In this document: in pieces, positions 1 through 30,899 of the stretch
Layout: every line of letters begins with the position of its first letter
Position numbering within the stretch: the first letter of the stretch is position 1
Virus record (IMG/VR): IMGVR_UViG_3300027956_000006
Source of the DNA: a virus
Reading direction: 5' to 3' (one strand)
Length of the DNA stretch: 64,000 nucleotides
Position numbers and translations under genes: made by a program
The notes under the pieces: generated by a model
What the model saw: the letters and a program-made list of their open reading frames with translations, nothing else
Told to the model about the DNA's origin: nothing
Database searches by the model: none

Positions 1-450
1 GCTGGAGCTGCTACTGCGTGATGAACTCGATTCACTTGAGCTGGAGCTGCTTCTACTCGACGACGATTGAGAGCTGGAGCTGCTACTGCGTGATGAACTT
101 GATTCACTTGAGCTTGAACTGCTTCTACTCGACGACGATTGAGAGCTGGAGCTGCTACTGCGTGATGAAGAAGAACTTGCGCCAGAGCTGCTACTACTCG
201 AAGATGATTGAGAACTGGAGCTGCTACTACGTGATGAAGAAGAACTTGCGCCAGAGCTGCTACTACTCGAAGATGATTGAGAACTGGAACTGCTACTACG
301 TGATGAACTTGATTTACTTGAGCTTGAACTGCTTCTACTCGACGACGATTGAGAGCTGGAGCTGCTTTTACTAGAAGACGAAGAACTTTTTGAGCTTGAG
401 GAAGAACTTAACGCTACTATACTAGAAGATGAACTAGATGATTCACTTGT
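1..450 (-). repeat. Poly-Ser linker 4 (SSESSSSRSSSSSSQSSSS-type units)
   Basis: Repeated blocks gagctggagctgctactgcgtgatgaa and ctactcgacgacgattgaga. Confidence 0.9.
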
Positions 451-3400
451 GATATATTCAAATGCCCCTATATCAAAAACTGCTCCTCGCAACAATCCAT
501 CATAATCTCTAGTGAGTACTGCTGATAAGTCTGTTCCTGACCCTATCAATGTTGATGTGGCTTGTAGGTGGAAATCAGTTGTCGGACTTACCAACAACGG
601 ATTAATGTTACTCAAACAATTAGATCCAGCCCACTCCGGCTTTGTTCCATTACCATAGTAATCATCATAATCTGAAGTAACAGTTCCTAAAAAAGAACTA
701 AAATAATCAATCCCAGAATAAGAATAGAAAATATTATTACGAAAAGTAACATTAGCACTCTGATTATCACCCGCTAAATTTATTAAAGGATTAGCAGTTT
801 TAGCTAAATAAATAGTGTTATTATAAAACCGGATATTAGAAACTGGAGTTGAAGGACAATCCAACTGAACTGAAGGACGAATAGAAGAACCACAATTAAC
901 AACTAGATTATTATAAATATAAATGTCTTGATTTCTTGAATTAACAAACAATCCACCGTGCCCCATGTTATAACAGAAATTATCGTGAATATAAACTTCA
1001 TCAGCATACCCAGTACCATCACTATCAACGGGATGACTATAGATACCTGAAGCTTCATCATACAAATCATGAAACTCATTCCAACCAATTTCAATATTTG
1101 TAGTGTTACAGTTTGGATTATTTGTATTGCAACCAAAATAAGTAGCGTGGTCATATCTATCCCTTCCCCAATCAGAAAGAGTGCAACCAAGCAATTTAAC
1201 ATTCGATATATTTTGAAGTGTATAATTTCCAGCCCAAGTTGAAGCATCATTCCTATTACTTGTATGTAAACTTACTGCTCTAATAAATCCAATAGGAGTT
1301 CCTCCCATATATGAACCTGCAATTACTAAAGCAGAATCAGTAACATAACAATTCATTTTTGCTAAAGTAAAATAACCTGCATATCCATCAGCATCTTCAG
1401 GATTATCTCGAATGCAACTTCTCGTATCATCAGACGTATAACTATGATCTAATGTTGGTAATTCTCCCGGATAACCGACATATGCAGTCATATTATTTGC
1501 GCTTCCATTCTGATTATAAGAAAGATATAAATTCCCAGCATAGTCATCTTCTTCTGTATACGTCCCCCCTCTAATATAAAGAATACTTCCACTACTTATT
1601 TGAAGTCGTGCATAAGGAAGCGTCTCCCATGCGGTCGTGTCAGTTTGCCCGTTATTAGCGTTATTACCATTCGTATGATCGACAAACCTGATAGCCCCGG
1701 AAGTGCGGACATAAAAAGGTATCGTACTCGAAGTACCCGAACTTGTAGTTACGGATATTGTTTGCGCTCCAGAAGTACAAGAAGAATTTAAGTAAAAGGT
1801 TATTCGCTCTAATCCTCTTGCGTTATTTGTAGTTACTCCCCATTCCGCATAGTCTGCAGCAGTAGTTAAATTCTGCCCAGCTACTGTAACATAACTTGAA
1901 CCTCTTGTAGAACCAAAATTCTGTCCCCAGATCGTCACCGCTGCACCCTTTGTAGCACTCCCATTCCAACCGCTTCTTGGACCATCGGTCAAATCGGAGA
2001 AATACAAAACTGGTATAATTTCCTCATAAATATTTGCAGAACTACTTGAAGATGAAGAACTAGAACGAGAAGAACTAGATTTACTACTTGAAGAACTCCT
2101 ACTTGAAGAACTTTTTGAACTTGAGCTACTTTTACTAGATGAAGAACTTCTAGAACTACTACTGCTCTTAGATGATGAACTCGAACTTGATTTTGAGGAA
2201 CTCGAACTAGATTTACTGGAGCTAGAACTACTGCTTCTTGCACTAGAACTACTTTTACTAGAACTAGATGAAGAAGATGATTTACTACTAGAAGAAGAAC
2301 TCGACTTAGAACTACTAGAACTAGAAGATTTACTTGAACTTGAAGAAGAACTTTTAGAGCTAGATGATGAACTACTTCTCGAACTACTAGACTTGCTTGA
2401 ACTTGAAGACGATGATTTACTTGAACTACTGCTAGAAGACTTTGATGATGAACTACTACGACTTGAAGAACTTCTACTAGAACGAGAAGAACTGCTTCTG
2501 CTAGAAGATGATTTACTAGAACTTGAAGATGAAGAACTAGAACTCTTAGATGAAGAAGAACTACTTCTCGAAGAACTAGAAGAAGACCTAGAACTACTAC
2601 TAGAAGTAATGTCTCCATATAAATAAAATATCGAATCTATAGAGGTATACCTATCCCATTCACCAATACGATATGCCTCTAAATAATTAGGATGAGTTGG
2701 AGAAGTACTATCTACACAAACATCTATATAATTAGTAGAATTTACAGTTCCAGAAGCTACTATAACTGTTACTCCATAATCATTTGGACTTAAATGAACT
2801 GGAGAAGAGAATGTAAAAGTATATAATAAATATGAAGTTGTTAAAGTACTTGTATCTAATGTAGAAGAATTACCTAAAGTAATATCAAAATCTTGAAATA
2901 CTGGATCATAAGTATATAATCTTGCCAATAAAGTGCCAGTAGGATTTCCTACTTTTTTCAAATAAAATTTACATTGATATATATTCCAATCCTGTGTTAA
3001 AGTAACTTTTTGACCAACACCGGAGTAATATGCACCTTCTGATGGATGAACTATGCTTAAACTGAAATTACTTTGATTAGCACTTGAATAGCTATCTATT
3101 AATGTATAAGGAGAAGACGAACTACTTGAACTAGATGATTTAGAAGAGCTTGATTTACTGCTGGAACTACTTCTACTACTTGACGAACTACTTTCTGAAC
3201 TACTAGATTTACTTGATGATGAACTACTACGTGATGAACTCGATTCACTTGAACTCGATTCACTTGAACTCGATTCACTTGAACTCGATTCACTTGAGCT
3301 AGAACTGCTTCTACTCGACGACGATTGAGAGCTGGAGCTGCTACTGCGTGATGAACTCGATTCACTTGAGCTGGAGCTGCTACTACTCGACGACGATTGA

Positions 3401-5622
3401 GAGCTGGAGCTGCTACTGCGTGATGAACTCGATTCACTTGAGCTGGAGCTGCTACTACGTGATGAAGAAGAACTTGAGCTACGACTACTAGATACTCCAC
3501 CTACAAATTCTATCCATGGGCAATAATCATCAGTTGAGGTATCATTTTCTGGTAAATCATTTATAGAATTATCTCCAATTCTTAAGTATCCCGTGTGACT
3601 TTGCATAAGAGTTGGGTTTCCACCTATACCTATTTCAAATATCAATCTATCACCTTCTTGCACGCTAATTTCATTGGATGTAGCAGAATCGCTTCTATTG
3701 GTATTATTGAAAAGCCCAATTAATTCAGTATTATCTCTTCTAAGATCAACTACTGTTCCTCTTATAATAGAACCGTCATTAGAACAAAGATAAACACCCC
3801 AAACAAGATATTCATTACAATCAGTATTCTGTTGACTACAACATATTTGTATTTTAACTGTTTGAGATGGAATAATTTGTGCAGATAGTGGGTCTGATAT
3901 ATATTGTATTCCAAGACAATCTTTATCTGTATCAGACGATTCCATTATAATTACATTAGTAAAAGGTGAACTTATTTTTTCTGTCACTGCTCTTAAACGA
4001 CTAGCAAAAGAGGTATCTTCCCAATTAACGTTATATGCAGGAGTTTCTGTTGATACACCAGTTGATGGGAGATAGAATCTTGTCCCATCTACATCACTTA
4101 TTTCGCCTAAACTTGACCTAGATGATTTAGAGCTTGAGCTGCTTCTACTTGACGACGATTGAGAGCTTGAGCTGCTACTGCGTGATGAACTCGATTTACT
4201 TGAGCTGGAGCTGCTTCTGCTCGACGACGATTGAGAACTGGAACTGCTACTGCGTGATGAACTCGATTCACTTGAACTCGATATTGACGAACTAGAACTC
4301 TCACTAGAACTCTCACTAGAACTCTCACTAGAACTACTTCTTGATGAGCTGGAACTTCTTGATGAAGATGAGCTGGAGCTGCCCGATGCGGTATTAAAAG
4401 CTACAAAGACGCAAGCATAGTGGTCTGATGGATTGCTTGTCATCGTAGCTGTATAGTCACCAGATGCTGTAAACGCTTTATCTTGAGTTTGATGAGTATG
4501 CCCGGCTTGTTCTGTCCTCTCTGTCCACCCCTGACCTGTGGTAGCTGATAACGCCGTTGCTCCCGCTTCATTAGCCCAATACGCAAATAATATTCCAGCG
4601 TTTGTACTTACTGCTAAATTTCCCGTTGTGTGAGTAGCAGTTGCAACTGTTTCTCCATAATTTAAAGAATTATCATAAGGGTCAGAAGTATCCATCCCTG
4701 AATACACATGGCAAGATAACCCAGGGTCGCCTTTAGACGAGCAAGTTATTGTACAGGTAGAATTAGTGGTGTTTGCAATCGCATACCAAACTTGGATTGC
4801 ACAATAAGCTGCTCCTCCATCACCATTCCAGTTCCCGATAGAATTGGCAAGAGTATATGTATTACTATTCTCGTCTGAAATAGTAGCATTAGCAGCAGCA
4901 TCATTAAAAGAATACCCCACTACTATTAAATCACCGGCAGTAACATTAACCGTGATTGCCCTTGTCGAACCATTGTAAACACTACTAAAACTATCATTTG
5001 CAATTACTGGATAAGTTGCAGTATCAAGGAAACTTTGAGGTATTGTAATAATATACTTATTTCCTTCAATCAATAATTTAGCGGGGCAAGTGTTACCTTT
5101 AGCATCTTTAAATATCGGCTGATAGAAAAACCCGAACTTCTCTCCCGTTGAAATCCTGTTTATTTTATACCCACCAATTTGTTCGGGGATATGCTGTGCT
5201 ACACCGTCTTTGAGTATTGATGCTGGTCGAACAAACTCTAAATCTTCCGCACCTGATATATTAAATTTCCAGCGATTCGATTTGGGTTTTTCATTCAATA
5301 TCAGCCCAAATTTCATCGTCTGGTCATCATATTGATTAAAATAGAAATCTTCTTCCCCACCGTACATCTTCAACCCTTCACCGTCTATCAGGGTCTTATC
5401 GGTCATACCGCCAGAAGTAGGATAACTTAAAATTAAACTTTCTTCTCCATCCCACTTGGTAAATTTAATAGTAGGCTCAATATATTCTTTAATAGAAGAA
5501 TCAGATAAAATTTTAGCGAACACCACATTTTCATTCCCAACTATTACTTCATCGTTGGCTTCGCCTAATGTAGTTTTATAGTTATCAAATTCTACTTTTG
5601 TTTTGTCTTTAAATAAAGCCAT
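1..5622 (-). CDS. Giant modular serine-rich protein, >=1874 aa, runs off the window; probable virion fibre/adhesin (modules incl. IPT/TIG + parallel beta-helix, joined by poly-Ser linkers)
   Basis: ATG at 5622 with GAGG RBS (MALFKDKTKVEFDNY...). No in-frame stop found on manual reading down to position 1. Motifs IPQSFLDTATYPVI, YLKKVGNPTG, VTIWGQNFGSTRG, ILYIRGGTY, IYIYNNLVV/IRFYNNTIY/VTFRNNIFY, DFHLQATSTLIGSG...DIGAFEY. Confidence 0.9.
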   Translation of the reverse strand, partial: MALFKDKTKVEFDNYKTTLGEANDEVIVGNENVVFAKILSDSSIKEYIEPTIKFTKWDGEESLILSYPTSGGMTDKTLIDGEGLKMYGGEEDFYFNQYDDQTMKFGLILNEKPKSNRWKFNISGAEDLEFVRPASILKDGVAQHIPEQIGGYKINRISTGEKFGFFYQPIFKDAKGNTCPAKLLIEGNKYIITIPQSFLDTATYPVIANDSFSSVYNGSTRAITVNVTAGDLIVVGYSFNDAAANATISDENSNTYTLANSIGNWNGDGGAAYCAIQVWYAIANTTNSTCTITCSSKGDPGLSCHVYSGMDTSDPYDNSLNYGETVATATHTTGNLAVSTNAGILFAYWANEAGATALSATTGQGWTERTEQAGHTHQTQDKAFTASGDYTATMTSNPSDHYACVFVAFNTASGSSSSSSSRSSSSSRSSSSESSSESSSESSSSSISSSSESSSSRSSSSSSQSSSSRSSSSSSKSSSSRSSSSSSQSSSSRSSSSSKSSRSSLGEISDVDGTRFYLPSTGVSTETPAYNVNWEDTSFASRLRAVTEKISSPFTNVIIMESSDTDKDCLGIQYISDPLSAQIIPSQTVKIQICCSQQNTDCNEYLVWGVYLCSNDGSIIRGTVVDLRRDNTELIGLFNNTNRSDSATSNEISVQEGDRLIFEIGIGGNPTLMQSHTGYLRIGDNSINDLPENDTSTDDYCPWIEFVGGVSSSRSSSSSSSRSSSSSSSESSSSRSSSSSSQSSSSSSSSSSSESSSSRSSSSSSQSSSSRSSSSSSESSSSESSSSESSSSESSSSRSSSSSSKSSSSESSSSSSRSSSSSKSSSSKSSSSSSSSSPYTLIDSYSSANQSNFSLSIVHPSEGAYYSGVGQKVTLTQDWNIYQCKFYLKKVGNPTGTLLARLYTYDPVFQDFDITLGNSSTLDTSTLTTSYLLYTFTFSSPVHLSPNDYGVTVIVASGTVNSTNYIDVCVDSTSPTHPNYLEAYRIGEWDRYTSIDSIFYLYGDITSSSSSRSSSSSSRSSSSSSKSSSSSSSSSSKSSSSRSSSSRSSRSSSSRSSSSSKSSSSSSSKSSSSSSSKSSSSRSSSSSSSKSSSSSSSKSSSSSSSKSSSSSSSKSSSSSSSSKSSSSARSSSSSSSKSSSSSSKSSSSSSSKSSSSSRSSSSSKSSSSSKSSSSRSSSSSKSSSSRSSSSSSSSSANIYEEIIPVLYFSDLTDGPRSGWNGSATKGAAVTIWGQNFGSTRGSSYVTVAGQNLTTAADYAEWGVTTNNARGLERITFYLNSSCTSGAQTISVTTSSGTSSTIPFYVRTSGAIRFVDHTNGNNANNGQTDTTAWETLPYARLQISSGSILYIRGGTYTEEDDYAGNLYLSYNQNGSANNMTAYVGYPGELPTLDHSYTSDDTRSCIRDNPEDADGYAGYFTLAKMNCYVTDSALVIAGSYMGGTPIGFIRAVSLHTSNRNDASTWAGNYTLQNISNVKLLGCTLSDWGRDRYDHATYFGCNTNNPNCNTTNIEIGWNEFHDLYDEASGIYSHPVDSDGTGYADEVYIHDNFCYNMGHGGLFVNSRNQDIYIYNNLVVNCGSSIRPSVQLDCPSTPVSNIRFYNNTIYLAKTANPLINLAGDNQSANVTFRNNIFYSYSGIDYFSSFLGTVTSDYDDYYGNGTKPEWAGSNCLSNINPLLVSPTTDFHLQATSTLIGSGTDLSAVLTRDYDGLLRGAVFDIGAFEYITSESSSSSSSIVALSSSSSSKSSSSSSKSSSSSQSSSSRSSSSSSKSSSSRSSSSSSQSSSSSSSSGASSSSSRSSSSSSQSSSSSSSSGASSSSSRSSSSSSQSSSSRSSSSSSESSSSRSSSSSSQSSSSRSSSSSSESSSSRSSSSS
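2036..2607 (-). repeat. Poly-Ser linker 3 (~190 codons; TCT/AGT/TCA-rich, with Lys/Arg)
   Basis: Low-complexity gaa/act/aga/tga repeats in frame with the giant ORF. Confidence 0.9.
3112..3492 (-). repeat. Poly-Ser linker 2, includes a 15-bp tandem unit (SSESS) x4
   Basis: tgaactcgattcact tandem at ~3234-3296. Confidence 0.9.
4111..4386 (-). repeat. Poly-Ser linker 1, includes a 12-bp tandem unit (SSES) x3
   Basis: actagaactctc tandem at ~4291-4335. Confidence 0.9.
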
Positions 5623-5635
5623 TTATCCTCTGAAT

Positions 5636-5884
5636 TTATTCACTTTTAGAATCAAACTTCTTTTGTTCATCAACTATTGCCTCAATAAATTGATTCATTA
5701 TATATCTATTTTCAAATGGTGCGTGCACATGTATATTCCCATCTTTATTCATTATTACCACCATATGTGGGACATCATCTTCACATAGCATACATTTAAA
5801 TTTATTTTTATCAGTAGCCGTAGCGCTAGTTTTACTTAAACTTCCATGTAATACTTCTTTTACATTTTTTATTTTAGTCTTCAT
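5636..5884 (-). CDS. Hypothetical protein (CxxC, HxH)
   Basis: ORF overlaps the end of the upstream gene. Confidence 0.6.
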   Translation of the reverse strand: MKTKIKNVKEVLHGSLSKTSATATDKNKFKCMLCEDDVPHMVVIMNKDGNIHVHAPFENRYIMNQFIEAIVDEQKKFDSKSE

Positions 5885-6623
5885 TTTTCATCTCCTTTGT
5901 TACTGTGTTTTGATTTTTGTTAGACAACGCTGTTGCTAACTTTGGGTAATATTGACGTATTAATTTTTCCAATCTATAACTGATGGATATACCACAACCA
6001 GTTCTATTTAACGCATGCGTTTCCCATGCTAATTTGTTTGTTGGATGAAAATGACATACATGTATTGGTTTAATACTTTTATTATACCTTTTTATAAATC
6101 CAGAACAACCAACATTATAAGTATAATTTAAAGTACTAACTCTATTTGGATATTTTCTTAAAATATAATTAAGGGTAGGCTCTTCTTTTCTTTCTTTCTT
6201 TTTAAGAAGGTGCGCGACTATCCTATCAATTATATCTATGGATTCTGGTTTCCAAAATAAACTCCCCCCATTAACTTTAGGTCTACTATATTGAGCGTAA
6301 CCAACATCTTTAAATTCAGGGCAGTTAAATTCTACATTTTGCCACGCATCCAAATCGTGTGACCATACAACATCTTTACATCCATTTTCGAATAGATACT
6401 TAACTCCAAACATCTTAGAACCAGTAAAACAGAAATCATTAAGGGGAATTATAATAGGCTTAATTCCCATATACTCAAAATCTATATTAGATAAAATAAT
6501 TATATCTTCTGATTTCCATCCTAATTCTAAACTGTTTTCTATTTGAGCTTTAACTAATAGAAGTAAACTATCTAAAGAATGATGGCACTTTTCTCTAAAG
6601 TTTAAAACTGTTAGATTTTTCAT
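5874..6623 (-). CDS. GT-A-type nucleotide-sugar transferase-like protein
   Basis: WSHDLDAW (DxD) and VNGGSLFW motifs; cluster context. Confidence 0.55.
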   Translation of the reverse strand: MKNLTVLNFREKCHHSLDSLLLLVKAQIENSLELGWKSEDIIILSNIDFEYMGIKPIIIPLNDFCFTGSKMFGVKYLFENGCKDVVWSHDLDAWQNVEFNCPEFKDVGYAQYSRPKVNGGSLFWKPESIDIIDRIVAHLLKKKERKEEPTLNYILRKYPNRVSTLNYTYNVGCSGFIKRYNKSIKPIHVCHFHPTNKLAWETHALNRTGCGISISYRLEKLIRQYYPKLATALSNKNQNTVTKEMKNED

Positions 6624-7447
6624 ATTTTAATTTTCTCACTGTATTTGAAATTCTTAAATACTTTTGCCGAACCCCACCGTATTCCTTTATTAGCAATCAA
6701 TTTTCCACGAGATAAATTAAACAATGAAAGTAATGCATTTCTTGATTCTGTGTATTTCCAATTTGAATACTGATATCTACCACTAGCATGAGGACTATGA
6801 TTTTTGACCATAGTGCAATAATTACTCCCAGTATATAAAATTTTAAATCCTGAATGAAATGCTCGCATTAATAAATCTTTATCATCATAACCATATCCTA
6901 TCATATCTTCATCATATCCACCTAAAGATAAGAAATCTTTTTTAAACATTCCTAATCTACCTCTATTTCTCCTGCCACTTTTAACAAAAACTACCTTTTC
7001 TGATATTTGATTAGCTAATTCATTTACTTTAGTAGCAAATCCTTTATTAACAAAATGGTCAGTATCTACATTTAAAACTATATCTCCTGTAGCCAAACGA
7101 AAGGTAATATTTCTAGAATGAGACATGCTATAATATTTAGCTGTAGTTTCATAATAATTTACTAATCCCCTGTCAATATAGGGGGTTAATTTCTCTTTAG
7201 CCCAACTATTAATATTATCTTTACTTCCATAATTCAATAACACCCATTCTATATTAGGGTAATCTATATTATCTTCAATATTTTTTATATAAACATCTTG
7301 TAAAGTATAAAGTCTATCCATAGAATTAGTGCAAATACTGATTTTATAGAACTTTTTTATTTCAACTACTTTAGGGGCAGTATATATAGGAATAAAATAT
7401 TTATTCCATATATCCTGAGTTATTAGATCTAAAACAGGTCTACTCAT
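6620..7447 (-). CDS. Glycosyltransferase, GT2/GT7-C type
   Basis: NVDTDH; LGGYDEDMIGYGYDDKDL. Confidence 0.85.
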   Translation of the reverse strand: MSRPVLDLITQDIWNKYFIPIYTAPKVVEIKKFYKISICTNSMDRLYTLQDVYIKNIEDNIDYPNIEWVLLNYGSKDNINSWAKEKLTPYIDRGLVNYYETTAKYYSMSHSRNITFRLATGDIVLNVDTDHFVNKGFATKVNELANQISEKVVFVKSGRRNRGRLGMFKKDFLSLGGYDEDMIGYGYDDKDLLMRAFHSGFKILYTGSNYCTMVKNHSPHASGRYQYSNWKYTESRNALLSLFNLSRGKLIANKGIRWGSAKVFKNFKYSEKIKI

Positions 7448-8204
7448 TTTTATAGAAAACCATTAAATTAGTTAAAATATAATTAGGACATCCTGATCTT
7501 TGCCAAGCACTAAATAATTTATTTACTGCATTTTCAGAATATTTCCAACATCTATCTTCTAACTTATTTATCCAATAAATTTTAGGTTGCCTATTTATAT
7601 GATATTTACCCCCTGCATTAGAAGCAGTGAGAATTACAATTCTTTCAGATGCATTCACTAAATTATCCACAAAAATATCTGCTTGTTCCTCTATTAAATG
7701 TTCAGCTACTTCAATAGATATAGCACAATCCCATTTACCACAATCTATAGATTCTCCCGCATTACCGTAACTAATATATTGTCTAATCCCTTCTGGTATA
7801 GCTTCTTTAGTAGTATTAAACAGTAAATCAAATCCTCTAACTTTTTCAACTCCTCCTAATATTAATCCTTCCAAATAAGACCCTAAGCCACACCCAAAAT
7901 CTACTGCATTTTTAATATTAAAAATAGGAACCAAAGCTTTTCCTAACTTAATTTCCCAATTTCTCATACTACCATGTCTCTTCCAATAATTATAATCTGA
8001 ATATAAATCATCAGGTTTAGTAAGATATAAAAATTTGCGTCTTAATAATTTAAGATTATTTCTAGCATTCCAAAATTCAATTTCTAAATTTTTAATGTCT
8101 TTTTGGTTATTTCTTTGTGCTAACTTTAAATTTCGTCTAGCTTCTCTAAAAACTATTTCTGAATTTTTTAAATCTCCTTCTATTTTAAATATTAGTTTTT
8201 CCAT
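7440..8204 (-). CDS. Class I SAM methyltransferase
   Basis: VDFGCGLG; SIEVAEHL; HINRQP. Confidence 0.85.
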   Translation of the reverse strand: MEKLIFKIEGDLKNSEIVFREARRNLKLAQRNNQKDIKNLEIEFWNARNNLKLLRRKFLYLTKPDDLYSDYNYWKRHGSMRNWEIKLGKALVPIFNIKNAVDFGCGLGSYLEGLILGGVEKVRGFDLLFNTTKEAIPEGIRQYISYGNAGESIDCGKWDCAISIEVAEHLIEEQADIFVDNLVNASERIVILTASNAGGKYHINRQPKIYWINKLEDRCWKYSENAVNKLFSAWQRSGCPNYILTNLMVFYKNE

Positions 8205-8848
8205 GCTATTTTATATTGTATTGTCCCTTCTTTATTATAACAATAATATTGTTTAATTTTATGATGTGTAAATAATTTCTTTATCCAATTGTCATATTCT
8301 TCTAATGATAACCACTCATTAAAATTAGTACTTGGAGACCTATAATGAATTTGAAAACATATATATTTAGCATTATAAAGAATCTCTTCTGATTTTTTAT
8401 CTCCAATAAGATACTTTTCTCCGCCCTCGCAGTTAAATTTTAATAAATAATTATCCGTCAATTTACAGTTATATATATTAAATAATTCCCATAAAGAAAT
8501 AGTTGGTATTAAAATCCCTTCATCTGTCTCTGTACATAATCCATCTAAAATATGACCACGTTCTTTAAAATGAATCGGTTTCCCATTACCCAGAGCTTTT
8601 TCTTCTAAATAAATATTATGACAAAAAAAGCTATTTTTCATCACTTCAGTAGCTTTAAAAAAAGGTTCGATAGCAATAATTTTGGTAAAAGGATGCCTCA
8701 TCTTCATAAATACAGAAAAAATACCAATATTCGCCCCAAAATCAAATATAGTATCTAAACTTCCGTTAGGTATATCTTTAACCCTATAGCAATCTTTTAA
8801 AATTATTTTTCTATATTCATTGCCTGGTTTTTTTATTTCAATAAGCAT
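8192..8848 (-). CDS. FkbM-family methyltransferase
   Basis: FDFGANIG, IAIEP, LKFNCEGGE. Confidence 0.85.
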   Translation of the reverse strand: MLIEIKKPGNEYRKIILKDCYRVKDIPNGSLDTIFDFGANIGIFSVFMKMRHPFTKIIAIEPFFKATEVMKNSFFCHNIYLEEKALGNGKPIHFKERGHILDGLCTETDEGILIPTISLWELFNIYNCKLTDNYLLKFNCEGGEKYLIGDKKSEEILYNAKYICFQIHYRSPSTNFNEWLSLEEYDNWIKKLFTHHKIKQYYCYNKEGTIQYKIAWKN

Positions 8849-9510
8849 TGTCTAACTACCTCTTTAGTTAAAGATATGTACCAACTATCTCCAGAAGGTC
8901 TACAGTTATCGTACGCATAGCATATTTCCAATACTCTTGGATGTTTCATAGCTTCGGCTAAAGAAAACCCAAAAGATTGATTTCCTATAAATAATTTACT
9001 TCCTTTTATAATTCTAGCCATTTCTAATCCATCTTTACAAAATTTATATCTATATAAAGCAGGAAATCGTTTCAATTTAAACCTTTCATATTCTTTTTTA
9101 GTACCTAAAAACAATATTTTATCAACATATTCTTTTAATAAAGTCCAATCTATTTCTTCTTTATCGTGGTAACGTCTTGTTCTTGATACAATTATTTCAG
9201 CTTCTTTTATCGGTTCTATATTAAAAAGCCATGGTTTAGATAAATCTACAAAAGTATTTAATACTTCTGCGTGACTTTGTGCTAAATGTTTTTTATGATT
9301 AGAGTGATAATCTATTTTTCTATATTTATCTAAATTAATTCCTTTACATGTACAATTAATTTTAATATTAGGTTGAATTTCTAAAAGAGAATACAAAGTA
9401 TCATAATGAGCTTTTTTAACTATATTAATAATCCCACCACCCAAAGATAGAATAGCGGGTAAAGAATAAATTATATCACCTAAAGAACCTTTATGACTAT
9501 ATTCATTCAT
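8833..9510 (-). CDS. GT9-like (heptosyltransferase-fold) glycosyltransferase
   Basis: GSLGDIIYSLP; LFIGNQS...LAEAM. Confidence 0.7.
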   Translation of the reverse strand: MNEYSHKGSLGDIIYSLPAILSLGGGIINIVKKAHYDTLYSLLEIQPNIKINCTCKGINLDKYRKIDYHSNHKKHLAQSHAEVLNTFVDLSKPWLFNIEPIKEAEIIVSRTRRYHDKEEIDWTLLKEYVDKILFLGTKKEYERFKLKRFPALYRYKFCKDGLEMARIIKGSKLFIGNQSFGFSLAEAMKHPRVLEICYAYDNCRPSGDSWYISLTKEVVRQCLLK

Positions 9511-12307: not shown

Positions 12308-12313
12308 AAAAAT

Positions 12314-12373
12314 AAAAAACCCTTTTTAGACAGTTCTTCTATTAACAAAAATAAAAGAATTGCCCAAAAAGGG
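12314..12373 (-). terminator. Long hairpin plus U-tract directly before the GT9/GT4 start codon
   Basis: CCCTTTTTGGGCAATTCTTTTATT / AATAGAAGAACTGTCTAAAAAGGG followed by TTTTTT. Confidence 0.65.
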
Positions 12374-12689: not shown

Positions 12690-12718
12690 AGTATAACATA
12701 TAACTCCTTTAATATCAA
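12690..12718 (-). promoter_or_regulatory. sigma70-like promoter
   Basis: TTGATA-17-TATACT with TG extension. Confidence 0.5.
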
Positions 12719-19088: not shown

Positions 19089-19096
19089 ATAATTTT

Positions 19097-19291: not shown

Positions 19292-19317
19292 ATATACTCC
19301 TTATATATAAATAAATA

Positions 19318-20145: not shown

Positions 20146-20152
20146 AGAAATC

Positions 20153-22044: not shown

Positions 22045-22582
22045 TTTGTCTCCTGTGCATTATAACTATTCCATATCCATAAGGTAATTCTATCATATCC
22101 CATTGATTGGTGTTTCTAATTTCTTTAATTACTATTGGTATATCTGGCCACCAATGATTATTTGTATCATGAATTAAAATATAACCATTATTAGATAAAT
22201 ATTTTGACCATTGTTCAAAATCTCTTTTAAATTGTTCATAATGGTGATTGCCATCAATATAAAGCAAATCTATTGACCTATTTTTACCCCATATATTAAA
22301 CGCCTCATCTGATGTTCCAATATATGAACATAGAAAAGGATGATTAACCATACTTTTTTCTATATGTGGATTTGGGTCAATAGTATATAATAACGCTGGC
22401 TTATTTATTTCATCTAAAGCTTCTAAAAATGCTGATGTTGTATGAGATGTACCTGTACCAATCTCTACTATTATATTTGGTTTTAATCCTCTTGTCATAT
22501 TATAAAGAAGCAATAGAATACCCCCTTCTTCTGTAACTTGATTGCTGATATATTTAAAAATTCTATATGGATAATCGTTCAT
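22034..22582 (-). CDS. Methyltransf_24-type methyltransferase
   Basis: VEIGTG; LYIDGNHHY; ILIHD. Confidence 0.85.
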   Translation of the reverse strand: MNDYPYRIFKYISNQVTEEGGILLLLYNMTRGLKPNIIVEIGTGTSHTTSAFLEALDEINKPALLYTIDPNPHIEKSMVNHPFLCSYIGTSDEAFNIWGKNRSIDLLYIDGNHHYEQFKRDFEQWSKYLSNNGYILIHDTNNHWWPDIPIVIKEIRNTNQWDMIELPYGYGIVIMHRRQNES

Positions 22583-23063
22583 TTGATAATTCCTGTACTA
22601 ATAATGTACTAATACCATAATTATTACCTGCTAAAATATCAATATTTCTATCACCAATAAAAATAACTTCTTCTTTTGGTATTTTAAATGTATCTATAAT
22701 TATTCGTAAACCTTCTGGATGAGGTTTTTTATGAAACACAGAATCCCTAGAAACAATTATATCAAATTCTGATAATAAATTAAATTGTTTCAATACTGCT
22801 GTTATTGTATCTTTATAATTCATTGAAAATAAAGCTTTTTTACCCTTAAAGTGTCTTAATAAGTGAATGACACTAACTACGGGAATACTTTCGTTTACTC
22901 CTTCCAATTCAATTTTTCGTGCTTCTTCTTCTTGCCCTAAATTACGTAATTGTTTAACTTTTTCCCAATCACATCTCAAAGTAACTAGAGTACCATCAAG
23001 ATCCATGATTAGAAGTTTATACTTTTTTACAATAAGATTCGTCAGCTTTGAATTTTTCATCAT
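22563..23063 (-). CDS. HAD-family phosphatase
   Basis: DLDGTL; KPHP; IGDRNIDILAG. Confidence 0.9.
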   Translation of the reverse strand: MMKNSKLTNLIVKKYKLLIMDLDGTLVTLRCDWEKVKQLRNLGQEEEARKIELEGVNESIPVVSVIHLLRHFKGKKALFSMNYKDTITAVLKQFNLLSEFDIIVSRDSVFHKKPHPEGLRIIIDTFKIPKEEVIFIGDRNIDILAGNNYGISTLLVQELSNERLSI

Positions 23064-24081
23064 AAATTAAAACTGCTGGGCAATCAATATGTCTTATCCA
23101 ATAAACATTATCTTTAATTGCATTGTATTGTAACAAATTTGGTAATTTTTCATTATATGCAAGTTTAACATAATAATATGGCATATTAATACCTGCTGTA
23201 CTAAAAAATAAACTTGTTGTAAAAAATCTTCCTGCATTAATTTCTGTTGGATAAATAACACCATTACTATCTTCTTTTAAATCAACACAAAAAATACCAG
23301 TTGCATTTTTATCTATAGAAGTAATAGCTGTGGTAGCCACCTTATTAATATCATCTCTTGCTATGGTCCGAGCAACAGCTGGAGTTCCAGTAATTCTTGA
23401 TGGAGCTAGATATGGATAAATATATTCTAGACGTTCACGTGCTTGTGATACAATTAATTTACCTTTATTCCATAAAGATTGAAAAGCAAAATCTTTACCA
23501 TTTAAAAATTTTTGTGCTATAAATACCCAATCAACATCTCTTGCTTTCCAATATCCAAACCAATGGATAGCCATATCCAAACTTTCTACTTTAGTACTAC
23601 CACGACCTCCTGCGCCAGAAGAAGCACGCATCCAATATGGATACCCTAAAATTTTACCGACCCTTCGTATATCAATAATATTTTTAATAGTATAAGACTT
23701 AACAGAATGTATTCCATTTTTTTCCCAAATGTTAGCACTAATAAATTTATTTTGACAAATATCAATTGTTTTTTTATTAGGTAATAACATCATGGCATTA
23801 ATTTTTTTACGATTTTCAGATAAAGTACGCACTTCAATATCAGGTTGAGCATGAATAAATTCTATCTTTTCTTTTTTGATAATATCATTAAGAAATTTAA
23901 TGTAATTAGGGTGTGTCGCTTCATAGGGAGCTACATATGCTTTATCTAAATCTGGCCATTCTAAATGCCATTTATTCATATCTGTACCAACTAAATACAT
24001 TGGTTCATCAACTAAACGTAAAGAATTAATAAAATTAACTGCTGGCGCCCCACCAGCACCCGTAATTAATATCCGTTTCAT
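23017..24081 (-). CDS. ATP-grasp ligase (carbamoyl-phosphate-synthase-like)
   Basis: ILITGAGG; GAGGRGS; TEINAGRF. Confidence 0.85.
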   Translation of the reverse strand: MKRILITGAGGAPAVNFINSLRLVDEPMYLVGTDMNKWHLEWPDLDKAYVAPYEATHPNYIKFLNDIIKKEKIEFIHAQPDIEVRTLSENRKKINAMMLLPNKKTIDICQNKFISANIWEKNGIHSVKSYTIKNIIDIRRVGKILGYPYWMRASSGAGGRGSTKVESLDMAIHWFGYWKARDVDWVFIAQKFLNGKDFAFQSLWNKGKLIVSQARERLEYIYPYLAPSRITGTPAVARTIARDDINKVATTAITSIDKNATGIFCVDLKEDSNGVIYPTEINAGRFFTTSLFFSTAGINMPYYYVKLAYNEKLPNLLQYNAIKDNVYWIRHIDCPAVLIYDEKFKADESYCKKV

Positions 24082-24110
24082 TCCTTTTTTCTCCTTTTAT
24101 CTTAAAATTA

Positions 24111-25058
24111 TCAATCTTCATTACTAATGCGCATAAAATCAATTTTTTCTTGAGCAGTGTTCATATCGTACATATCTTGTATAGTAAAATCTTTCCATTC
24201 TTTTTCCATATCCTCATTAGGCATTCGGATATCTTTATATACTAAATTTCCTTGCCAATCCCCCTTCGCCATTGCAACAGGATTAATAAAACCTTCTTTA
24301 ATATTTTTAAAAATATATTTTCCCGTATCACCATTTTTAGCGTATTTAATTTGTTTAAAAAATAATTGTATCATAAAACGTCTAAAATTTTTACGATAAA
24401 ATAAACCAGGATATACAAAAGAATGATTACCTCTCCAATAACCTTTTTGATCTTCTGCTTCAGGGAAAGTTACTACTAATTCACCATTTTCTTTTAAAAC
24501 TCTTTTAATTTCCATACATGCATGCATAGGATCACTTAAGTGTTCTACTGTTTCTGTAAAAAAAACAATATCAAAAACATTATCGGGAAAGGGGAATCTA
24601 TCACGCGAAACATCCATATATAATAATGTACAATATTCATACCTTTTTTCATCATAATATAATTTCTGTGCCGCTAAACCAGCGTCAAGTCCTATAATTT
24701 TATTACCAAATCTTGATAAATATACCATTAAATCACCCCGCCCAGCGCCAACATCTAAAATTATTTTATTAGAAGGGGTTTTATAAAAGCCATCAGTAAT
24801 AATAGTTGCTTGCATACCAATACCTGCCTGGTCAAAATTTTCCCAATAAGGATCATATGTATATTTTAGTCTTGGTACCCAATACTTACGTAATTCACCA
24901 TATAATTCACCATGTTCATTTTCAAATCCCCAACGTTCAAATTCATTGTGCCATGGATATTCTGGTAAATTTCTACATTTAGCTATTTCAGATTTAGATA
25001 ATGTTGTTAATGTATCATCTTTGTTTTCATTTTTATCCATTTTACCCCCTAATATCAA
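24111..25058 (-). CDS. Methyltransf_11-type methyltransferase
   Basis: LDVGAGRG; FPFPDNVFD; EIKRVLKENG. Confidence 0.88.
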   Translation of the reverse strand: MILGGKMDKNENKDDTLTTLSKSEIAKCRNLPEYPWHNEFERWGFENEHGELYGELRKYWVPRLKYTYDPYWENFDQAGIGMQATIITDGFYKTPSNKIILDVGAGRGDLMVYLSRFGNKIIGLDAGLAAQKLYYDEKRYEYCTLLYMDVSRDRFPFPDNVFDIVFFTETVEHLSDPMHACMEIKRVLKENGELVVTFPEAEDQKGYWRGNHSFVYPGLFYRKNFRRFMIQLFFKQIKYAKNGDTGKYIFKNIKEGFINPVAMAKGDWQGNLVYKDIRMPNEDMEKEWKDFTIQDMYDMNTAQEKIDFMRISNED

Positions 25059-26035: not shown

Positions 26036-27054
26036 ATTTTATCCCTAATAATATCAATAAAATATGCTGCTTGTGCAAAATTAGTATGGTATTTGAAAGT
26101 ATGCTGTCTACATGCTTCTGCTATTTGTTTACGTTCTTGTTCATGTGATAAATAATAATCTATTTTTTCACGTAAATCATAAATATCATTAAAATAAACA
26201 CAATGCACTTTATCAATATATGGATTAGGAATTATAATCCCTGGATCTTTAATTAACATTAATGTCTCAAAAGATGCTGCTTCCCAATACCGTACTGTAT
26301 CTCTACCATGTCCACGGACAATTATATTTATTTTAGCTGATGCCATAGTTTTTAAGTAATCAATATACCCCTTTAATGGAGGAATATGGAATCTCTTTTC
26401 ATCTTGCCATGGTAATGCACCAGTATCAATTCCAATATATGAATTGTTTAAATTCTGCTCTAAAAGAAACTTGATCACTCTTTCACGCAACGGATGTGTA
26501 TTACCAAATAAAGCAAAAACATCAAGTGTTTTATCTAGCTTGCATAAATCCTCATAAATATCTAAATGTGGAACACATGCAGAAAATGGTAATGGATAAA
26601 TATTATCAATTTGACGTATCAATTCACGTTTAAATATAAATTGTGGTTTATATTCTTCTATAATATCGGTACAGATATTATCACCATCTTCAAAATCACA
26701 AAATGCTAATGGTTTAGGTGATTTACCGCCATATAATTTCTTAATAAATTCCATTGCGTGTAACGGATAATGACGTGGCGATGTTAGAACTATCAAATCT
26801 ATATGTTGCATTTCTTCTACTATTTCTTCAAATGGATATAAACGTATTTTACGTGATTTAACATATGCAGCTGGTGCTGTCATACCTCTTTTATTTTCGT
26901 TATGCAACATATACGACATATCCATAAATCCCATATAACTTAATTTAAATGGGTATAATATAATATTATCTTCACCTAATAATTCACACAGACCATTATA
27001 TAAGAAATATTCACCATAATCTTGCTCTGGATTCAAAAGAAATAAAATTTTCAT
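26032..27054 (-). CDS. CgeB-like glycosyltransferase
   Basis: GHGRDTVRYWEA; KIDYYLSHEQERKQIA; YHT. Confidence 0.82.
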   Translation of the reverse strand: MKILFLLNPEQDYGEYFLYNGLCELLGEDNIILYPFKLSYMGFMDMSYMLHNENKRGMTAPAAYVKSRKIRLYPFEEIVEEMQHIDLIVLTSPRHYPLHAMEFIKKLYGGKSPKPLAFCDFEDGDNICTDIIEEYKPQFIFKRELIRQIDNIYPLPFSACVPHLDIYEDLCKLDKTLDVFALFGNTHPLRERVIKFLLEQNLNNSYIGIDTGALPWQDEKRFHIPPLKGYIDYLKTMASAKINIIVRGHGRDTVRYWEAASFETLMLIKDPGIIIPNPYIDKVHCVYFNDIYDLREKIDYYLSHEQERKQIAEACRQHTFKYHTNFAQAAYFIDIIRDKI

Positions 27055-27665
27055 ATTCGTCTCCCTACATAATTTAAAGAAAAAAAGTTATGCAAATCAT
27101 TAAAAACTTCTGTTTTTATAAGATCGGTATTTAATTTAATTATATTTTGTTCAAAATCTTCTGGTGTATAAAAATTCTTATGTGTAGGGTCCCATTTACC
27201 TTTTTCATATCTAGCATCGGGCATTAATAATATCATAATACCATCCTTACACAATAACTTACACCATTGTCTAAAAACTATAATTGGATTACAAACATGT
27301 TCCAAAATATGGCTCATTACAATAAAAGAAAATGTGTTTTTGTTAAATAATTTATAACTTTGTTCAGCTAAACCTGTTATTTGTGGTGAATATCTACCAC
27401 CATATATAGGGTGTTGTTCACCACAATAATCATTTACACCAATACAAGCTAAATGAGGGTCCTGTCCACACCCAATATCTAACCCAACACCATAATGTTC
27501 ACGTAATTGTTTTAAAATCCAATATAAAATAAACGCTTCTTGCTGCATACCAACAAGATTGTCTATCAAAGAAAAATCAAGTCTGTGCGGTTGCTTGCAA
27601 TTAAAATATTCAAAATTTGGAAAAAATTCTAATAGATCATCTCTGACATGTATATCAAGATTCAT
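27051..27665 (-). CDS. Class I SAM methyltransferase
   Basis: GLDIGCG; SHILEH; LLMPD; DPTH. Confidence 0.85.
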   Translation of the reverse strand: MNLDIHVRDDLLEFFPNFEYFNCKQPHRLDFSLIDNLVGMQQEAFILYWILKQLREHYGVGLDIGCGQDPHLACIGVNDYCGEQHPIYGGRYSPQITGLAEQSYKLFNKNTFSFIVMSHILEHVCNPIIVFRQWCKLLCKDGIMILLMPDARYEKGKWDPTHKNFYTPEDFEQNIIKLNTDLIKTEVFNDLHNFFSLNYVGRRI

Positions 27666-27668
27666 ATT

Positions 27669-28601
27669 TTATATCTCACAAATACATTCTTTTAAATTTT
27701 TATCTAGATATTTCATCTGAAGCTTAGGTAATATATCAACTAATCTATGATGCACCTCAACTTGTGGAATATCGTAATAATCTTTACATCCCCACTTTTT
27801 TGCAAAATAAACTCGTGAATAATCCATACGATATACTTTACCTGGTATTGGTTCTATTCTAGACATATCATATTTCTTGCTCATAATTTCACGATATTCT
27901 TCCATTGAACAAATTTTATCATCCGGGGACATAATATTTAATTCAAAATTATTAGCAAATGTTTGTGAACCCCAATGCTCAATTGGTGGATAAGGAAGCA
28001 TCACTGAATAATATCCTAATTTAGCAATCTGAAATCCATAATCAGTTTCCTCGTAAAAACTCTTAATATTTTCATCAAACCCACCAATTTCATCAAAAAT
28101 TTTACGTTTAAAAGCAAAACAACATCCAACAACCGCTCCTACGCGGCCAGGTAAAGTATCATAATTAGGTAAACTATAATTTTTATTTGGTAGACCAGAT
28201 AAAGGATCTATTTGTATTAATGGATACCCAACTGCGGCAACTTTTTCATTATTTTGTAATGCATAAACTATACATTTCAACCAATTATCATTACAAATAC
28301 ATATATCATCATTAAATAAAATAGATATATCAGTATCGAAATGTCTCGTTAAATCATTCCATGATTTAGGAATACCACAATTATTTGTATGTTGAATAAA
28401 ATCAACTTTAAAGCGTTTTGCTAATTCTTCTACACCCAAACGCATTTCTTGATTAGGTGTGCCATCATCTAAAATAACTGTTCGATATGAATAATTAAAG
28501 TCTTGATGAAAATATAATGAGGTTAATAGTCTTTCTAATCTTACTGTAGAATTATATGTAGGTGCACCAATTCCAATCTTAATATTATTCTCCATTTTCA
28601 T
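27669..28601 (-). CDS. GT2 glycosyltransferase
   Basis: PTYN, LDDGT, FNDD, IGGFDE...YEETD. Confidence 0.9.
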   Translation of the reverse strand: MKMENNIKIGIGAPTYNSTVRLERLLTSLYFHQDFNYSYRTVILDDGTPNQEMRLGVEELAKRFKVDFIQHTNNCGIPKSWNDLTRHFDTDISILFNDDICICNDNWLKCIVYALQNNEKVAAVGYPLIQIDPLSGLPNKNYSLPNYDTLPGRVGAVVGCCFAFKRKIFDEIGGFDENIKSFYEETDYGFQIAKLGYYSVMLPYPPIEHWGSQTFANNFELNIMSPDDKICSMEEYREIMSKKYDMSRIEPIPGKVYRMDYSRVYFAKKWGCKDYYDIPQVEVHHRLVDILPKLQMKYLDKNLKECICEI

Positions 28602-28604
28602 CCT

Positions 28605-30899
28605 TTATTTTGCATACAAATCTAAATGTTTTTGAGCTATTTTACCCCAATTATTTAATTCTATATATCGATTTGCTGCAGTAACTAATGTATGTTGTAG
28701 AGAAACATCACCAAATACCTTAAGAATTGTTTTTGCTATTACTTCTGGATTTATAGAATTAAACTTTAAAACTTCATTATTTAAATCTAAAAATGCTAAT
28801 GAATCATTAACAATAATCGGGCGTTGTGTTCTAAATAATGTTTTCACAGCTGCAGAAATACCACCACCAGTCGGAGCATCATGATAATTTAAAACAAATA
28901 AATCAGCACATTGTAAAACAGCAAGCAATTTATCCTCTGGTAAATATTCTCTAATTAATAAAACATTATTTTGTAGATCATGTCTTTCAATAAAATTGAA
29001 GAATGATGCATCATATGCTTGGCTACCAAATTCATGTTTAGGGCAAATTAATAACGCTAAAACATCATTATACTGCTCTTTTAATAATTTAACCGCTAAT
29101 AAATAATCATGAAAACCTTTTTGATCTCTTAAAAAACCAAATGATCCAATAATTGGTGTATTATGGCTTATATTAAGATTCTTTTTAGTTAGATCTACAT
29201 TCTCCTGTTTTAAAATTGCTAAATCACTTACTCCCATAGCAATAACATCTATATCGCAAATATTAGGTAAAAACCCTTTTGTTTCAGAAGAACGTTCTAC
29301 TAATTTATCTTTAAATTGTTGACAATGTACAATTAAATTATCAGCGCGTGATAATAATAACTCATTATATGAAGATAATCCTGGGACTAAACTATGTAAA
29401 GTAATAACAACTTTAACATTTAAAGTATGTAGTTGATCTAATAAAATTCTTAATTGTTCTTTATCTTTAAAAAATGAAAATTCATGTTGTATATGAATTA
29501 CATTATAATTACCTTCTTTTATTATTTTAGGTAATTCTTGATACTCATATGATGAGTATACTACAACATGTTGCCCTAATTTACGTATTGCATCAAATAG
29601 ATATTTTGTATATTCTGCAATACCACAATGAGTTCCCCAACTAGGTATGACAATTAAAGGATTAATTTCTTTAATTTTAACATGTTCTTTAATAAAATTA
29701 AAGTTCTTTTTTGTCATTACTTTATTTATCCTTTGCATTAAAGCAGAACTTGTCTCATCCCAAGTTAATTGATCTGTGAATTTTTGCGATTTTGTACTAA
29801 TTTCTTTCCGTAAAGTATGCTGATTCTTGAAATCATTGTATAAAACATTTAATTTCTCTACTAAATCACTCTGCGATGCTATCGCTCTTTTAATACCATT
29901 AAATCCATATAGATATCCTGATGTTTTTAATAAAAACCCGCCACCTTGATTAATTAATTCTGTTGTAGCGGCATAATCAGTAGTTAAAACAGGTGTTCCA
30001 ACAGCCATAGCTTCTAAGGTAGGCAATGATAAACCTTCACCTATGCTTGTATTAACACTTGCAGAAGCCAAATTATATATTAAATTCAGTTGTTGATCTG
30101 ACATTCCTTTTAAAGGGCCCGCTTCTTTAGTAATAGCAACTTTTTTTCTTAAATCAAAATATTTTACAAAATCCCATAAATCAAAACCAAAAGGATCTGC
30201 TGGATCAGTTACAAGTAATAAAAATACATCATCTTTATCAATAGCAAAATCTTTAAAAGCCTCTATCGTTAAAGGTATATTTTTTCTATCAGTATTTTGA
30301 TTAATATTTAGTACTAAAAATGTATCTTTTAAATTAAATGGAAGTGTATTCTCTTTTATAATTGGAGCTGAAGGGAAAAAAATAGTTTTATCAACTCCTG
30401 GATAAATAACATTTGTTTGAATATCGGCATACTTATATATTTCCTGTTTTGCAAAGTATGAAAATACATTAATATCATCTGCTGAATTTAATATAGAATG
30501 CCAACTAGGGTGTAAATGCTCCCCATCAACAGTAAGCCATAAAACCCATTTAGTATTTGGAAAAGATTCCTTATGTACATTTATAACATGTTGTATATGT
30601 TCAAAATTCCAAAGATCTCCTATAGAAAGAATTATATCAGGCTGTGCATCAGCTAAAATATGAGAGAATTGTTCCGCTTCTTTACTAGAAGATTTTTCTA
30701 AAGGGTATAAAAAATAAGGTAAATCGTGTTTAGTATTACGATAATGCCATGCAGCATATACTACATCATATATTTTTATATTATTATTCGTTTTGGCATC
30801 AAATGTAGTATATTCAACTAAACGTTTTGCTATTTCCTTACCACAACGAGCTAATCCTGAATATAACAATGGCGAGTCAGTGTGTAGCAGTATTTTCAT
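28605..30899 (-). CDS. Tandem GT4 (two GT-B units) glycosyltransferase
   Basis: RKNIP, EGLSLPTLEAMAVGTP; CGIAEYT, HIQHEF, FGFLRDQKG. Confidence 0.9.
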   Translation of the reverse strand: MKILLHTDSPLLYSGLARCGKEIAKRLVEYTTFDAKTNNNIKIYDVVYAAWHYRNTKHDLPYFLYPLEKSSSKEAEQFSHILADAQPDIILSIGDLWNFEHIQHVINVHKESFPNTKWVLWLTVDGEHLHPSWHSILNSADDINVFSYFAKQEIYKYADIQTNVIYPGVDKTIFFPSAPIIKENTLPFNLKDTFLVLNINQNTDRKNIPLTIEAFKDFAIDKDDVFLLLVTDPADPFGFDLWDFVKYFDLRKKVAITKEAGPLKGMSDQQLNLIYNLASASVNTSIGEGLSLPTLEAMAVGTPVLTTDYAATTELINQGGGFLLKTSGYLYGFNGIKRAIASQSDLVEKLNVLYNDFKNQHTLRKEISTKSQKFTDQLTWDETSSALMQRINKVMTKKNFNFIKEHVKIKEINPLIVIPSWGTHCGIAEYTKYLFDAIRKLGQHVVVYSSYEYQELPKIIKEGNYNVIHIQHEFSFFKDKEQLRILLDQLHTLNVKVVITLHSLVPGLSSYNELLLSRADNLIVHCQQFKDKLVERSSETKGFLPNICDIDVIAMGVSDLAILKQENVDLTKKNLNISHNTPIIGSFGFLRDQKGFHDYLLAVKLLKEQYNDVLALLICPKHEFGSQAYDASFFNFIERHDLQNNVLLIREYLPEDKLLAVLQCADLFVLNYHDAPTGGGISAAVKTLFRTQRPIIVNDSLAFLDLNNEVLKFNSINPEVIAKTILKVFGDVSLQHTLVTAANRYIELNNWGKIAQKHLDLYAK

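Follow-up and report, generated by a model that had tools for sequence, protein, structure and literature searches.

A capsid-linked gene island predicted to glycosylate virion proteins in an uncultured low-GC phage lineage

A gene island attached to the capsid gene

The 64,000-nucleotide stretch of viral DNA analyzed here (IMG/VR record IMGVR_UViG_3300027956_000006, hereafter the window) contains an island located 3' of its major capsid gene, in which about 29 genes point the same way and for the most part overlap. The island spans 5874-31317 (about 25 kb) on the minus strand, which encodes every gene of the window and to which all window coordinates below refer. Judging from its sequence, we place a probability of roughly 55% on this island being an expandable, capsid-linked, cytoplasmic system for the glycosylation of virion proteins, carried by a large, low-GC, uncultured, siphophage-like lineage of sediment and groundwater. 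The gene number, the strict attachment to the capsid gene in about 19 contigs and the graded expansion from two to at least 30 genes are all unusual, as is the putative serine-rich (Ser-rich) fibre abutting the island in one subclade. A first-pass annotation of the window had already described some 30 co-oriented genes behind the capsid gene and had read them as a glycosylation cassette dedicated to a poly-Ser protein. The former observation has held, including the capsid assignment, and the dedication to poly-Ser is not supported.

Relatives of the window were found by locus searches of IMG/VR and the JGI metagenomes with the capsid protein and with alignments of the island's double glycosyltransferase, after which whole contigs were inspected. 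An alignment-based search was required, as a locus search with the double transferase as a single sequence gave no match. In addition to the window, about 18 contigs were recovered, including some near-duplicates. In all relatives with enough sequence, four genes stand in a fixed order, namely a 129-aa gene, the capsid gene, a 125-aa gene and the double transferase gene. The latter (28605-30899) encodes a 764-aa double GT-B glycosyltransferase (Pfam Glycos_transf_1 plus Glyco_transf_4; phrog_2170) and is the invariant core enzyme, with 37-62% identity across about 20 contigs. It is succeeded in nearly all cases by the usual second core gene, which encodes a GT2 glycosyltransferase (27669-28601; Pfam). 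Genes for a PF13524 transferase, a methyltransferase and the short-chain dehydrogenase/reductase (SDR) of 15226-16218 are also common. Island size ranges from two genes in relative G002 through five to six in several metagenome loci, eight in G005 (a 105-kb contig), about 10 in G006 (130 kb with terminal repeats) and about 28 in G001 to at least 30 in G003, where the island runs off the contig. This graded series amounts to a natural experiment on island growth.

The genes that follow the island in G001, G002, G005 and G006 are of head-tail connector, tail-tube and tape-measure size, and in Mycobacterium phage MrMiyagi the connector genes directly follow the capsid gene. The island therefore appears to be an insertion into the capsid-to-connector junction, and its location within the head-to-tail morphogenesis block supports virion-protein glycosylation. 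MrMiyagi also encodes a counterpart of the 129-aa gene, annotated as a minor capsid protein. The capsid gene of the window (31426-32445) encodes a 339-aa protein matching phrog_3990 (major head protein, E 4e-38). Over 97% of its length, this protein shares 26% identity with the annotated capsid proteins of Mycobacterium, Gordonia and Microbacterium phages; its counterparts in the relatives are 53-80% identical to it. Because the core of the island (double GT-B, GT2, PF13524, methyltransferase and SDR) travels with the capsid gene, the acceptor is likelier to be a head component or another lineage-wide protein than poly-Ser. The capsid protein is a candidate acceptor, since its short, Thr-rich C-terminal tail is conserved, with another head protein being possible too. 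Capsid-protein relatives lacking the island were sought for a comparison of this tail and none was found.

The gene content of the island, as assigned with Pfam and NCBIfam, is dominated by glycan synthesis. From the capsid-proximal end, the double GT-B and GT2 genes are succeeded by an S-adenosylmethionine (SAM) methyltransferase (27051-27665), two glycosyltransferase-like genes of family PF13524 (26032-27054 and 25055-26035), a further SAM methyltransferase (24111-25058), an ATP-grasp enzyme (23017-24081), a HAD phosphatase (22563-23063), a Methyltransf_24 enzyme (22034-22582; a family of the rhamnosyl-O-methyltransferase/CmcI kind), two SDR sugar dehydratases/epimerases (21088-22044 and 20153-21097) and another GT2 (19318-20145). 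An HNH homing endonuclease gene (18285-19088; phrog_5956, E 4e-10) is inserted mid-island. Beyond it lie a methyltransferase (17761-18321), a radical-SAM/SPASM protein (16991-17779), a methyltransferase (16231-17013), the aforementioned SDR epimerase (15226-16218), a short, 269-aa nucleoside diphosphate (NDP)-sugar dehydrogenase (14407-15216), a 144-aa signal-peptide protein (13726-14160; from a hydrophobicity scan) and a GDP-mannose 4,6-dehydratase (Gmd; 12715-13683), the latter scoring 397 bits, just below the equivalog cut-off of 415. The distal block (5874-12307) is specific to the window, with no homologues in G001. It comprises a 752-aa GT9-like plus GT1 fusion (10049-12307), a second Methyltransf_24 (9507-10052), a protein without assignment (8833-9510), an FkbM methyltransferase (8192-8848), a weakly matching methyltransferase (7440-8204), a GT2 enzyme with a Glyco_transf_7C domain (6620-7447) and a weak nucleotide-sugar-transferase-like gene (5874-6623; E 0.009). 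Altogether, seven firm and one weak glycosyltransferase genes with about 10 domains were counted, where the first-pass annotation had nine genes and 11 domains, and its eight SAM methyltransferases became seven firm and one weak, including the two Methyltransf_24 and the single FkbM enzymes. The other enzymes it had named (Gmd, a sugar dehydrogenase, three epimerases, ATP-grasp, HAD and radical SAM) were all recovered, the dehydrogenase in its short NDP-sugar form and the epimerases as SDR proteins, while the HNH endonuclease and the signal-peptide protein are additions to its list. GC content is 26-32% across the island and 29-46% in the modules and Ser tracts of the giant gene that follows it, being highest in the tracts.

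In the NDP-sugar dehydrogenase, which covers profile positions 72-293 of 413, the C-terminal domain that binds the nucleotide sugar is missing. G005, G006 and several metagenome loci encode the same short form (40-56% identity), and for this reason it probably retains a function, albeit an altered one. In phmmer searches against the PDB, the GT2/7C enzyme had no match and the GT9-GT1 fusion had weak matches to TreT only. A resemblance of these two enzymes to polypeptide-GalNAc transferases or autotransporter heptosyltransferases is a lead.

The island encodes no multi-pass membrane protein. No island protein contains more than one hydrophobic 19-mer, so a flippase, a polymerase, a priming transferase of the integral-membrane type and an ABC permease are all absent, and none has a Pfam match to a priming phosphoglycosyltransferase, flippase, polymerase or ABC exporter, in agreement with the first-pass annotation. 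As the island has no export machinery, its target is most economically sought in the cytoplasm, for instance among virion proteins, and a cytoplasmic acceptor had likewise been proposed there. A nucleotidyltransferase is not encoded in the island either, so that host NDP-sugar pools would have to feed the pathway. Furthermore, B736L of chlorovirus NY-2A (PDB 3oy2) is a match to the double transferase in its first half (E 9e-8). B736L is a soluble, GDP-mannose-binding GT-B enzyme; the viruses it comes from encode cytoplasmic transferases that build their capsid glycans and methyltransferases that O-methylate these afterwards (PMC9614988).

Based upon these features, a course of events can be proposed. 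A terminator-like hairpin (31340-31372; 15-bp stem plus T-run) lies directly 3' of the capsid gene and before the island. If leaky, it would probably let a lower level of late transcription into the island, whose position suggests late co-expression with the structural proteins and whose hairpin suggests a level below that of the capsid protein. Going by the gene families, soluble enzymes would draw on host GDP-mannose and UDP-sugar pools, and the product would contain GDP-mannose-derived 6-deoxy sugars and many O-methyl groups, perhaps along with a uronic acid that the ATP-grasp enzyme has amidated, possibly with an amino acid. Soluble transferases would presumably then put these glycans on a protein acceptor in the cytoplasm, before or during assembly.

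Several observations weigh against this interpretation. Both the acceptor and the glycan chemistry are read from gene content. None of the island transferases attains an NCBIfam equivalog cut-off; their families are generic (GT2, GT4) and their best weak NCBIfam matches are exopolysaccharide and lipopolysaccharide enzymes. Peripheral transferases could use host lipid-linked intermediates, and hence the lack of export genes is no proof of a protein acceptor. The capsid and 125-aa proteins exhibit no obvious Ser/Thr tag beyond the short Thr-rich capsid tail. Finally, the block also contains genes that are not structural, namely those of an AAA plus ligase-like protein, the HNH endonuclease and the signal-peptide protein.

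The giant Ser-rich protein and the choice of acceptor

Downstream of the island, an open frame (1-5622) that runs past the window edge encodes a giant protein of at least 1874 aa. The four mostly-Ser tracts ascribed to it by the first-pass annotation are indeed present, at residues 410-506, 708-841, 1004-1199 and 1723-1874 or beyond. Each is 77-82% Ser and 97-196 residues long, with K, R, E or Q every 4-7 residues. The tracts alternate with folded modules in a beads-on-a-string layout consisting of a beta-supersandwich N-domain and three further beta modules. Ser is encoded by all six of its codons, drawn from the two boxes, which indicates that the tracts are not products of simple triplet slippage. 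Tracts 1, 2 and 4 (window positions 4130-4275, 3280-3458 and 1-456) contain a related 72-nt (24-codon) repeat unit, which suggests intragenic duplication or recombination as the means by which the linkers spread. The codon pattern and the repeat together fit selection on composition plus linker duplication.

The N-domain (the first 409 residues) belongs to a family with 900 representative matches, most of them about 400 aa in length. Its AlphaFold model is all-beta with a predicted local distance difference test (pLDDT) score of 87.5. For residues 6-218, VIA finds a fold similar to the accessory domains of the beta-supersandwich type in polysaccharide lyases and glycoside hydrolases (Z about 10; root-mean-square deviation 3.6-3.9 over 163-181 residues), although this is a generic fold resemblance that does not place the giant protein on the virion. 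Foldseek returned only matches of low TM (template-modeling) score for the N-terminal 409 residues. The last module (residues 1200-1722) shares language-model features with TIG plus right-handed beta-helix proteins (0.98, 203 shared features), an identity to be taken as a lead, and phmmer found no PDB match for it. Pfam and PHROGs had no match for any of the four modules or for 50 members of the N-domain family. The giant protein has no N-terminal hydrophobic segment; signal peptides are present on some of the closest N-domain homologues. By fold and feature resemblance, from which all of its module identities derive, it has the appearance of carbohydrate-binding or carbohydrate-cutting modules strung together by long linkers and is a plausible fibre.

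The enzyme-like character of these modules (supersandwich, TIG and beta-helix) would also suit a different function of the island, in which the genes form an auxiliary cluster acting on a non-virion target. The cluster might remodel lipid-linked glycans of the host envelope (precursors of O-antigen, capsule or teichoic acid) or make a soluble glycoconjugate. The host would supply priming, flipping and polymerizing functions, and the Ser tracts would be ordinary linkers of a captured fibre akin to carbohydrate-active enzymes (CAZymes). Many envelope-glycan transferases are peripheral and require no transmembrane segment, and the weak matches of the island transferases to exopolysaccharide and lipopolysaccharide enzymes point in the same direction. 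Bacterial polyserine linkers are typically several-fold shorter than the 97-196 residues seen here. They are common in the carbohydrate-active enzymes of Saccharophagus degradans and Cellvibrio japonicus, where they separate modules (PMC2386152) much as the Ser runs of the giant protein lie between beta-sandwich and beta-helix modules with carbohydrate-enzyme-like folds. Unlike those bacterial enzymes, the giant protein has tracts punctuated by K, R, E or Q, belongs to a phage, lacks a signal peptide and is encoded beside a putative glycosylation island. The island occupies a fixed place behind the capsid gene in the late structural block of about 19 contigs, which is hard to reconcile with a function in the host envelope for what looks like a large lytic phage, and it encodes no membrane-associated component whatsoever. 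We therefore consider a non-virion target to be unlikely, though it deserves more weight than a dedicated poly-Ser partnership or a modification of DNA.

If instead the island were a dedicated partner of poly-Ser, the tracts would be the main acceptor, as in streptococcal serine-rich repeat (SRR) adhesins, and would form a mucin-like bristle. To examine this pairing, whole contigs were scanned in six frames for open reading frames (ORFs) of at least 100 aa with a 30-residue segment holding at least 14 Ser. Ser-rich proteins were found only in the window, G001 and G002. In both the window and G001, a Ser-rich protein directly follows an island of 25-28 kb, and that of G001 is a 1002-aa protein with a homologous N-domain plus about 570 residues of SPS(I/L/V/A) repeats. 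The genes just upstream are transferases and methyltransferases in both contigs but are non-homologous between them, and the Ser-rich sequences differ likewise (poly-S with K/R/E/Q in the window, SPS(I/L/V/A) in G001). Together with the selection on composition suggested by the use of all six Ser codons, this favors a functional pairing. However, the capsid proteins of the window and G001 are 78-80% identical, and the arrangement in these close kin thus counts as one evolutionary event.

Elsewhere the pairing breaks down. G005 (whole contig) has an 8-gene island and no Ser-rich ORF, G006 (whole contig) has about 10 island genes and only two marginal frames of 157-160 aa, and roughly ten metagenome loci, each with 5-10 kb of downstream sequence, have no Ser-rich ORF near the core island. 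Conversely, the longest and purest poly-Ser occurs in G002, in a protein of 1772 aa encoded in the tail region and an ORF of 521 aa that precedes the capsid gene, yet the island of this contig consists of the double transferase, its one transferase gene, and an intein-bearing epimerase. The N-domain family was not found in G002, G005 or G006, and a locus scan with a 9-sequence N-domain alignment gave only two further loci. Among the 150 best N-domain homologues, merely three have Ser-rich tracts, and a 414-aa family member on an unrelated viral contig has no transferase genes nearby. The first-pass annotation had itself named clusters without Ser-rich proteins, or the reverse, as counting against its proposal, and both cases occur among the relatives, the reverse in the reduced form of G002. 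The constant neighbor of the island is the capsid gene rather than a Ser-rich gene, and the Ser-rich protein is optional. Evidently, a poly-Ser protein adjoining transferases is insufficient by itself to be named their acceptor.

As a separate observation on G002, its two poly-Ser proteins (loci L013, 641-5959, and L014, 17205-18767) have in common a beta-rich module of roughly 150 residues located between poly-Ser runs of 100-250 residues, which are interrupted only by an occasional Leu. One such beta-rich/poly-Ser unit forms the N-terminal part of a large protein from the tail region.

The SRR adhesins of streptococci and staphylococci depend upon GtfA/GtfB and an accessory Sec system. The window resembles them in having a very long Ser-rich protein beside several cytoplasmic transferases. 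In contrast to SRR systems, neither SecA2/SecY2 nor a signal peptide or LPXTG motif was seen (the giant C-terminus lies outside the window), and instead of a single SRR region there are tracts linking folded modules, in addition to the pairing being broken by relatives. Six of the transferases (those starting at 28605, 27669, 19318, 10049, 6620 and 5874) matched no NCBIfam model of GtfA, GtfB or Maf type at E up to 1e-3, and the two PF13524 genes had no NCBIfam match at E up to 1e-5. By its gene content, the island is not an SRR protein/accessory-Sec system, as it has neither GtfA/GtfB nor export genes. Overall, we find it quite doubtful that poly-Ser is the dedicated partner of the island.

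A subordinate role for the Ser tracts is more readily combined with virion-protein glycosylation. In the subclade of the window, the island would have grown to about 29 genes, to be followed by a CAZyme-like fibre, and the Ser tracts of the window and G001 may be a second, mucin-like acceptor or could equally be plain flexible linkers. In the most far-reaching version, a multiply O-methylated glycan would cover both the head and the 100-200-residue Ser tracts of the fibre of at least 1874 aa, yielding a true mucin-like glycocalyx. We regard this version as tentative, with the odds leaning clearly against it. If true, such a coat would be a genetic investment comparable to mimivirus fibril glycosylation.

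A role of the transferases in adding glycan hypermodifications to the phage's own DNA, of the type known from T-even phages and from the systems of Pyle et al. 2024, is highly improbable, even though phage transferase clusters can target DNA (cited in PMC12619734). G001, G005 and G006 (contigs 60-77% complete) have no ThyA-family hydroxymethylase, the island resides in the late structural block, and eight methyltransferases, an ATP-grasp enzyme and 6-deoxy-sugar enzymes far exceed the needs of such a system. We know of no DNA glycan that requires tailoring on this scale.

Parallels with known virus-encoded glycosylation

To our knowledge, self-glycosylation of tailed-phage particles has been demonstrated experimentally only for mycobacteriophages, with one to a few transferases. 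Freeman and colleagues reportedly described virion O-glycosylation in the mycobacteriophages Che8, Corndog and Myrna. PMC12619734, citing Freeman et al. 2023, presents glycans on mycobacteriophage capsid and tail-tube C-termini as established; of the two corresponding genes in the present phage, that of the capsid is in the window and that of the tail tube falls beyond it. The island parallels this system in that phage-encoded soluble transferases presumably act in the cytoplasm on structural proteins, and the capsid proteins are distantly related (26%). Unlike the mycobacteriophage system and its one to a few genes, the island consists of about 29 genes, includes its own sugar-nucleotide tailoring and lies directly behind the capsid gene. 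Moreover, a tblastn search of 50,697 phage records with the double transferase and the GT2 enzyme, and these two only, gave no Mycobacterium phage match.

Capsid glycosylation in chloroviruses and giant viruses offers a second parallel, as soluble multi-domain transferases, sugar O-methyltransferases, Gmd and a sugar dehydrogenase are likewise virus-encoded there. The chlorovirus set includes PBCV-1 A064R, A111/114R, A546L/B736L, GMD and UGD (PMC9614988). However, these are dispersed, early genes of nucleocytoplasmic large DNA viruses, whereas the island is a single operon-like unit beside the capsid gene of a tailed bacterial or archaeal virus. By analogy, the island would work like mycobacteriophage and giant-virus self-glycosylation, but we do not class it as a member of either, since its core transferases have no mycobacteriophage homologue and the system is known here from its genes. 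A capsid-locked island of about 29 genes and its graded series among relatives would imply that some environmental phages invest in a surface glycan as heavily as giant viruses do. Possible benefits include shielding from grazers, enzymes, adsorption sinks or host defenses, as well as adhesion to sediment polysaccharide matrices.

Among cultured phages, a comparable cassette is found in the head block of the Synechococcus siphophage S-CBS4, in which gp014-gp016 (NC_016766) are annotated as glycosyltransferase, galactosyl transferase and methyltransferase. The S-CBS4 transferase is 28% identical to the double transferase (E 6e-34). In contrast to the island, this cassette has three genes and is located between the portal and protease genes; no reported function of gp014-gp016 was found in the literature. 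An HNH gene also directly follows the S-CBS4 cassette. In Tetrasphaera phage TJE1, an epimerase, a methyltransferase and a transferase are encoded upstream of the terminase.

Capsid-proximal genes and other features

The 125-aa protein (30940-31317; from alignment and synteny) is always encoded between the capsid gene and the double transferase. In the list of ORFs it appears as 30940-31374 with a TTG start, and the terminator-like hairpin falls within the resulting 5' extension. Judging from the alignment with relatives, this TTG start is an artefact and the true, conserved start is the ATG at 31317. The AlphaFold2 model of the 125-aa protein has a pLDDT of 80.7, and fold searches gave nothing above background, the best match (VIA Z 6.3) being confined to the helical C-terminal half. 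A complex prediction for the double transferase and the 125-aa protein scored 0.00, a value that counts neither for nor against binding.

Between the Gmd and sugar dehydrogenase genes, with small gaps on either side, lies the gene for the 144-aa protein, which has an N-terminal signal or transmembrane segment. No homologue was found in the relatives examined, and the gene resembles a moron insertion.

Upstream of the capsid gene is a prohead-protease-like gene (32882-34501). It adjoins the gene for an 867-aa protein (34516-37119) in which an AAA ATPase domain is joined to a domain resembling ATP-dependent DNA ligases, the latter scoring below the Pfam cut-off; such a gene is an odd member of a head block. 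Further upstream, a 939-aa ORF (39947-42766) contains an intein splicing domain and a LAGLIDADG endonuclease (Pfam E 2e-29). In G002, the SDR epimerase of the island (L012, 4683-6764; 693 aa) is split by an intein-like insert as well. With one example in the window and another in this relative, inteins seem to be frequent in the lineage.

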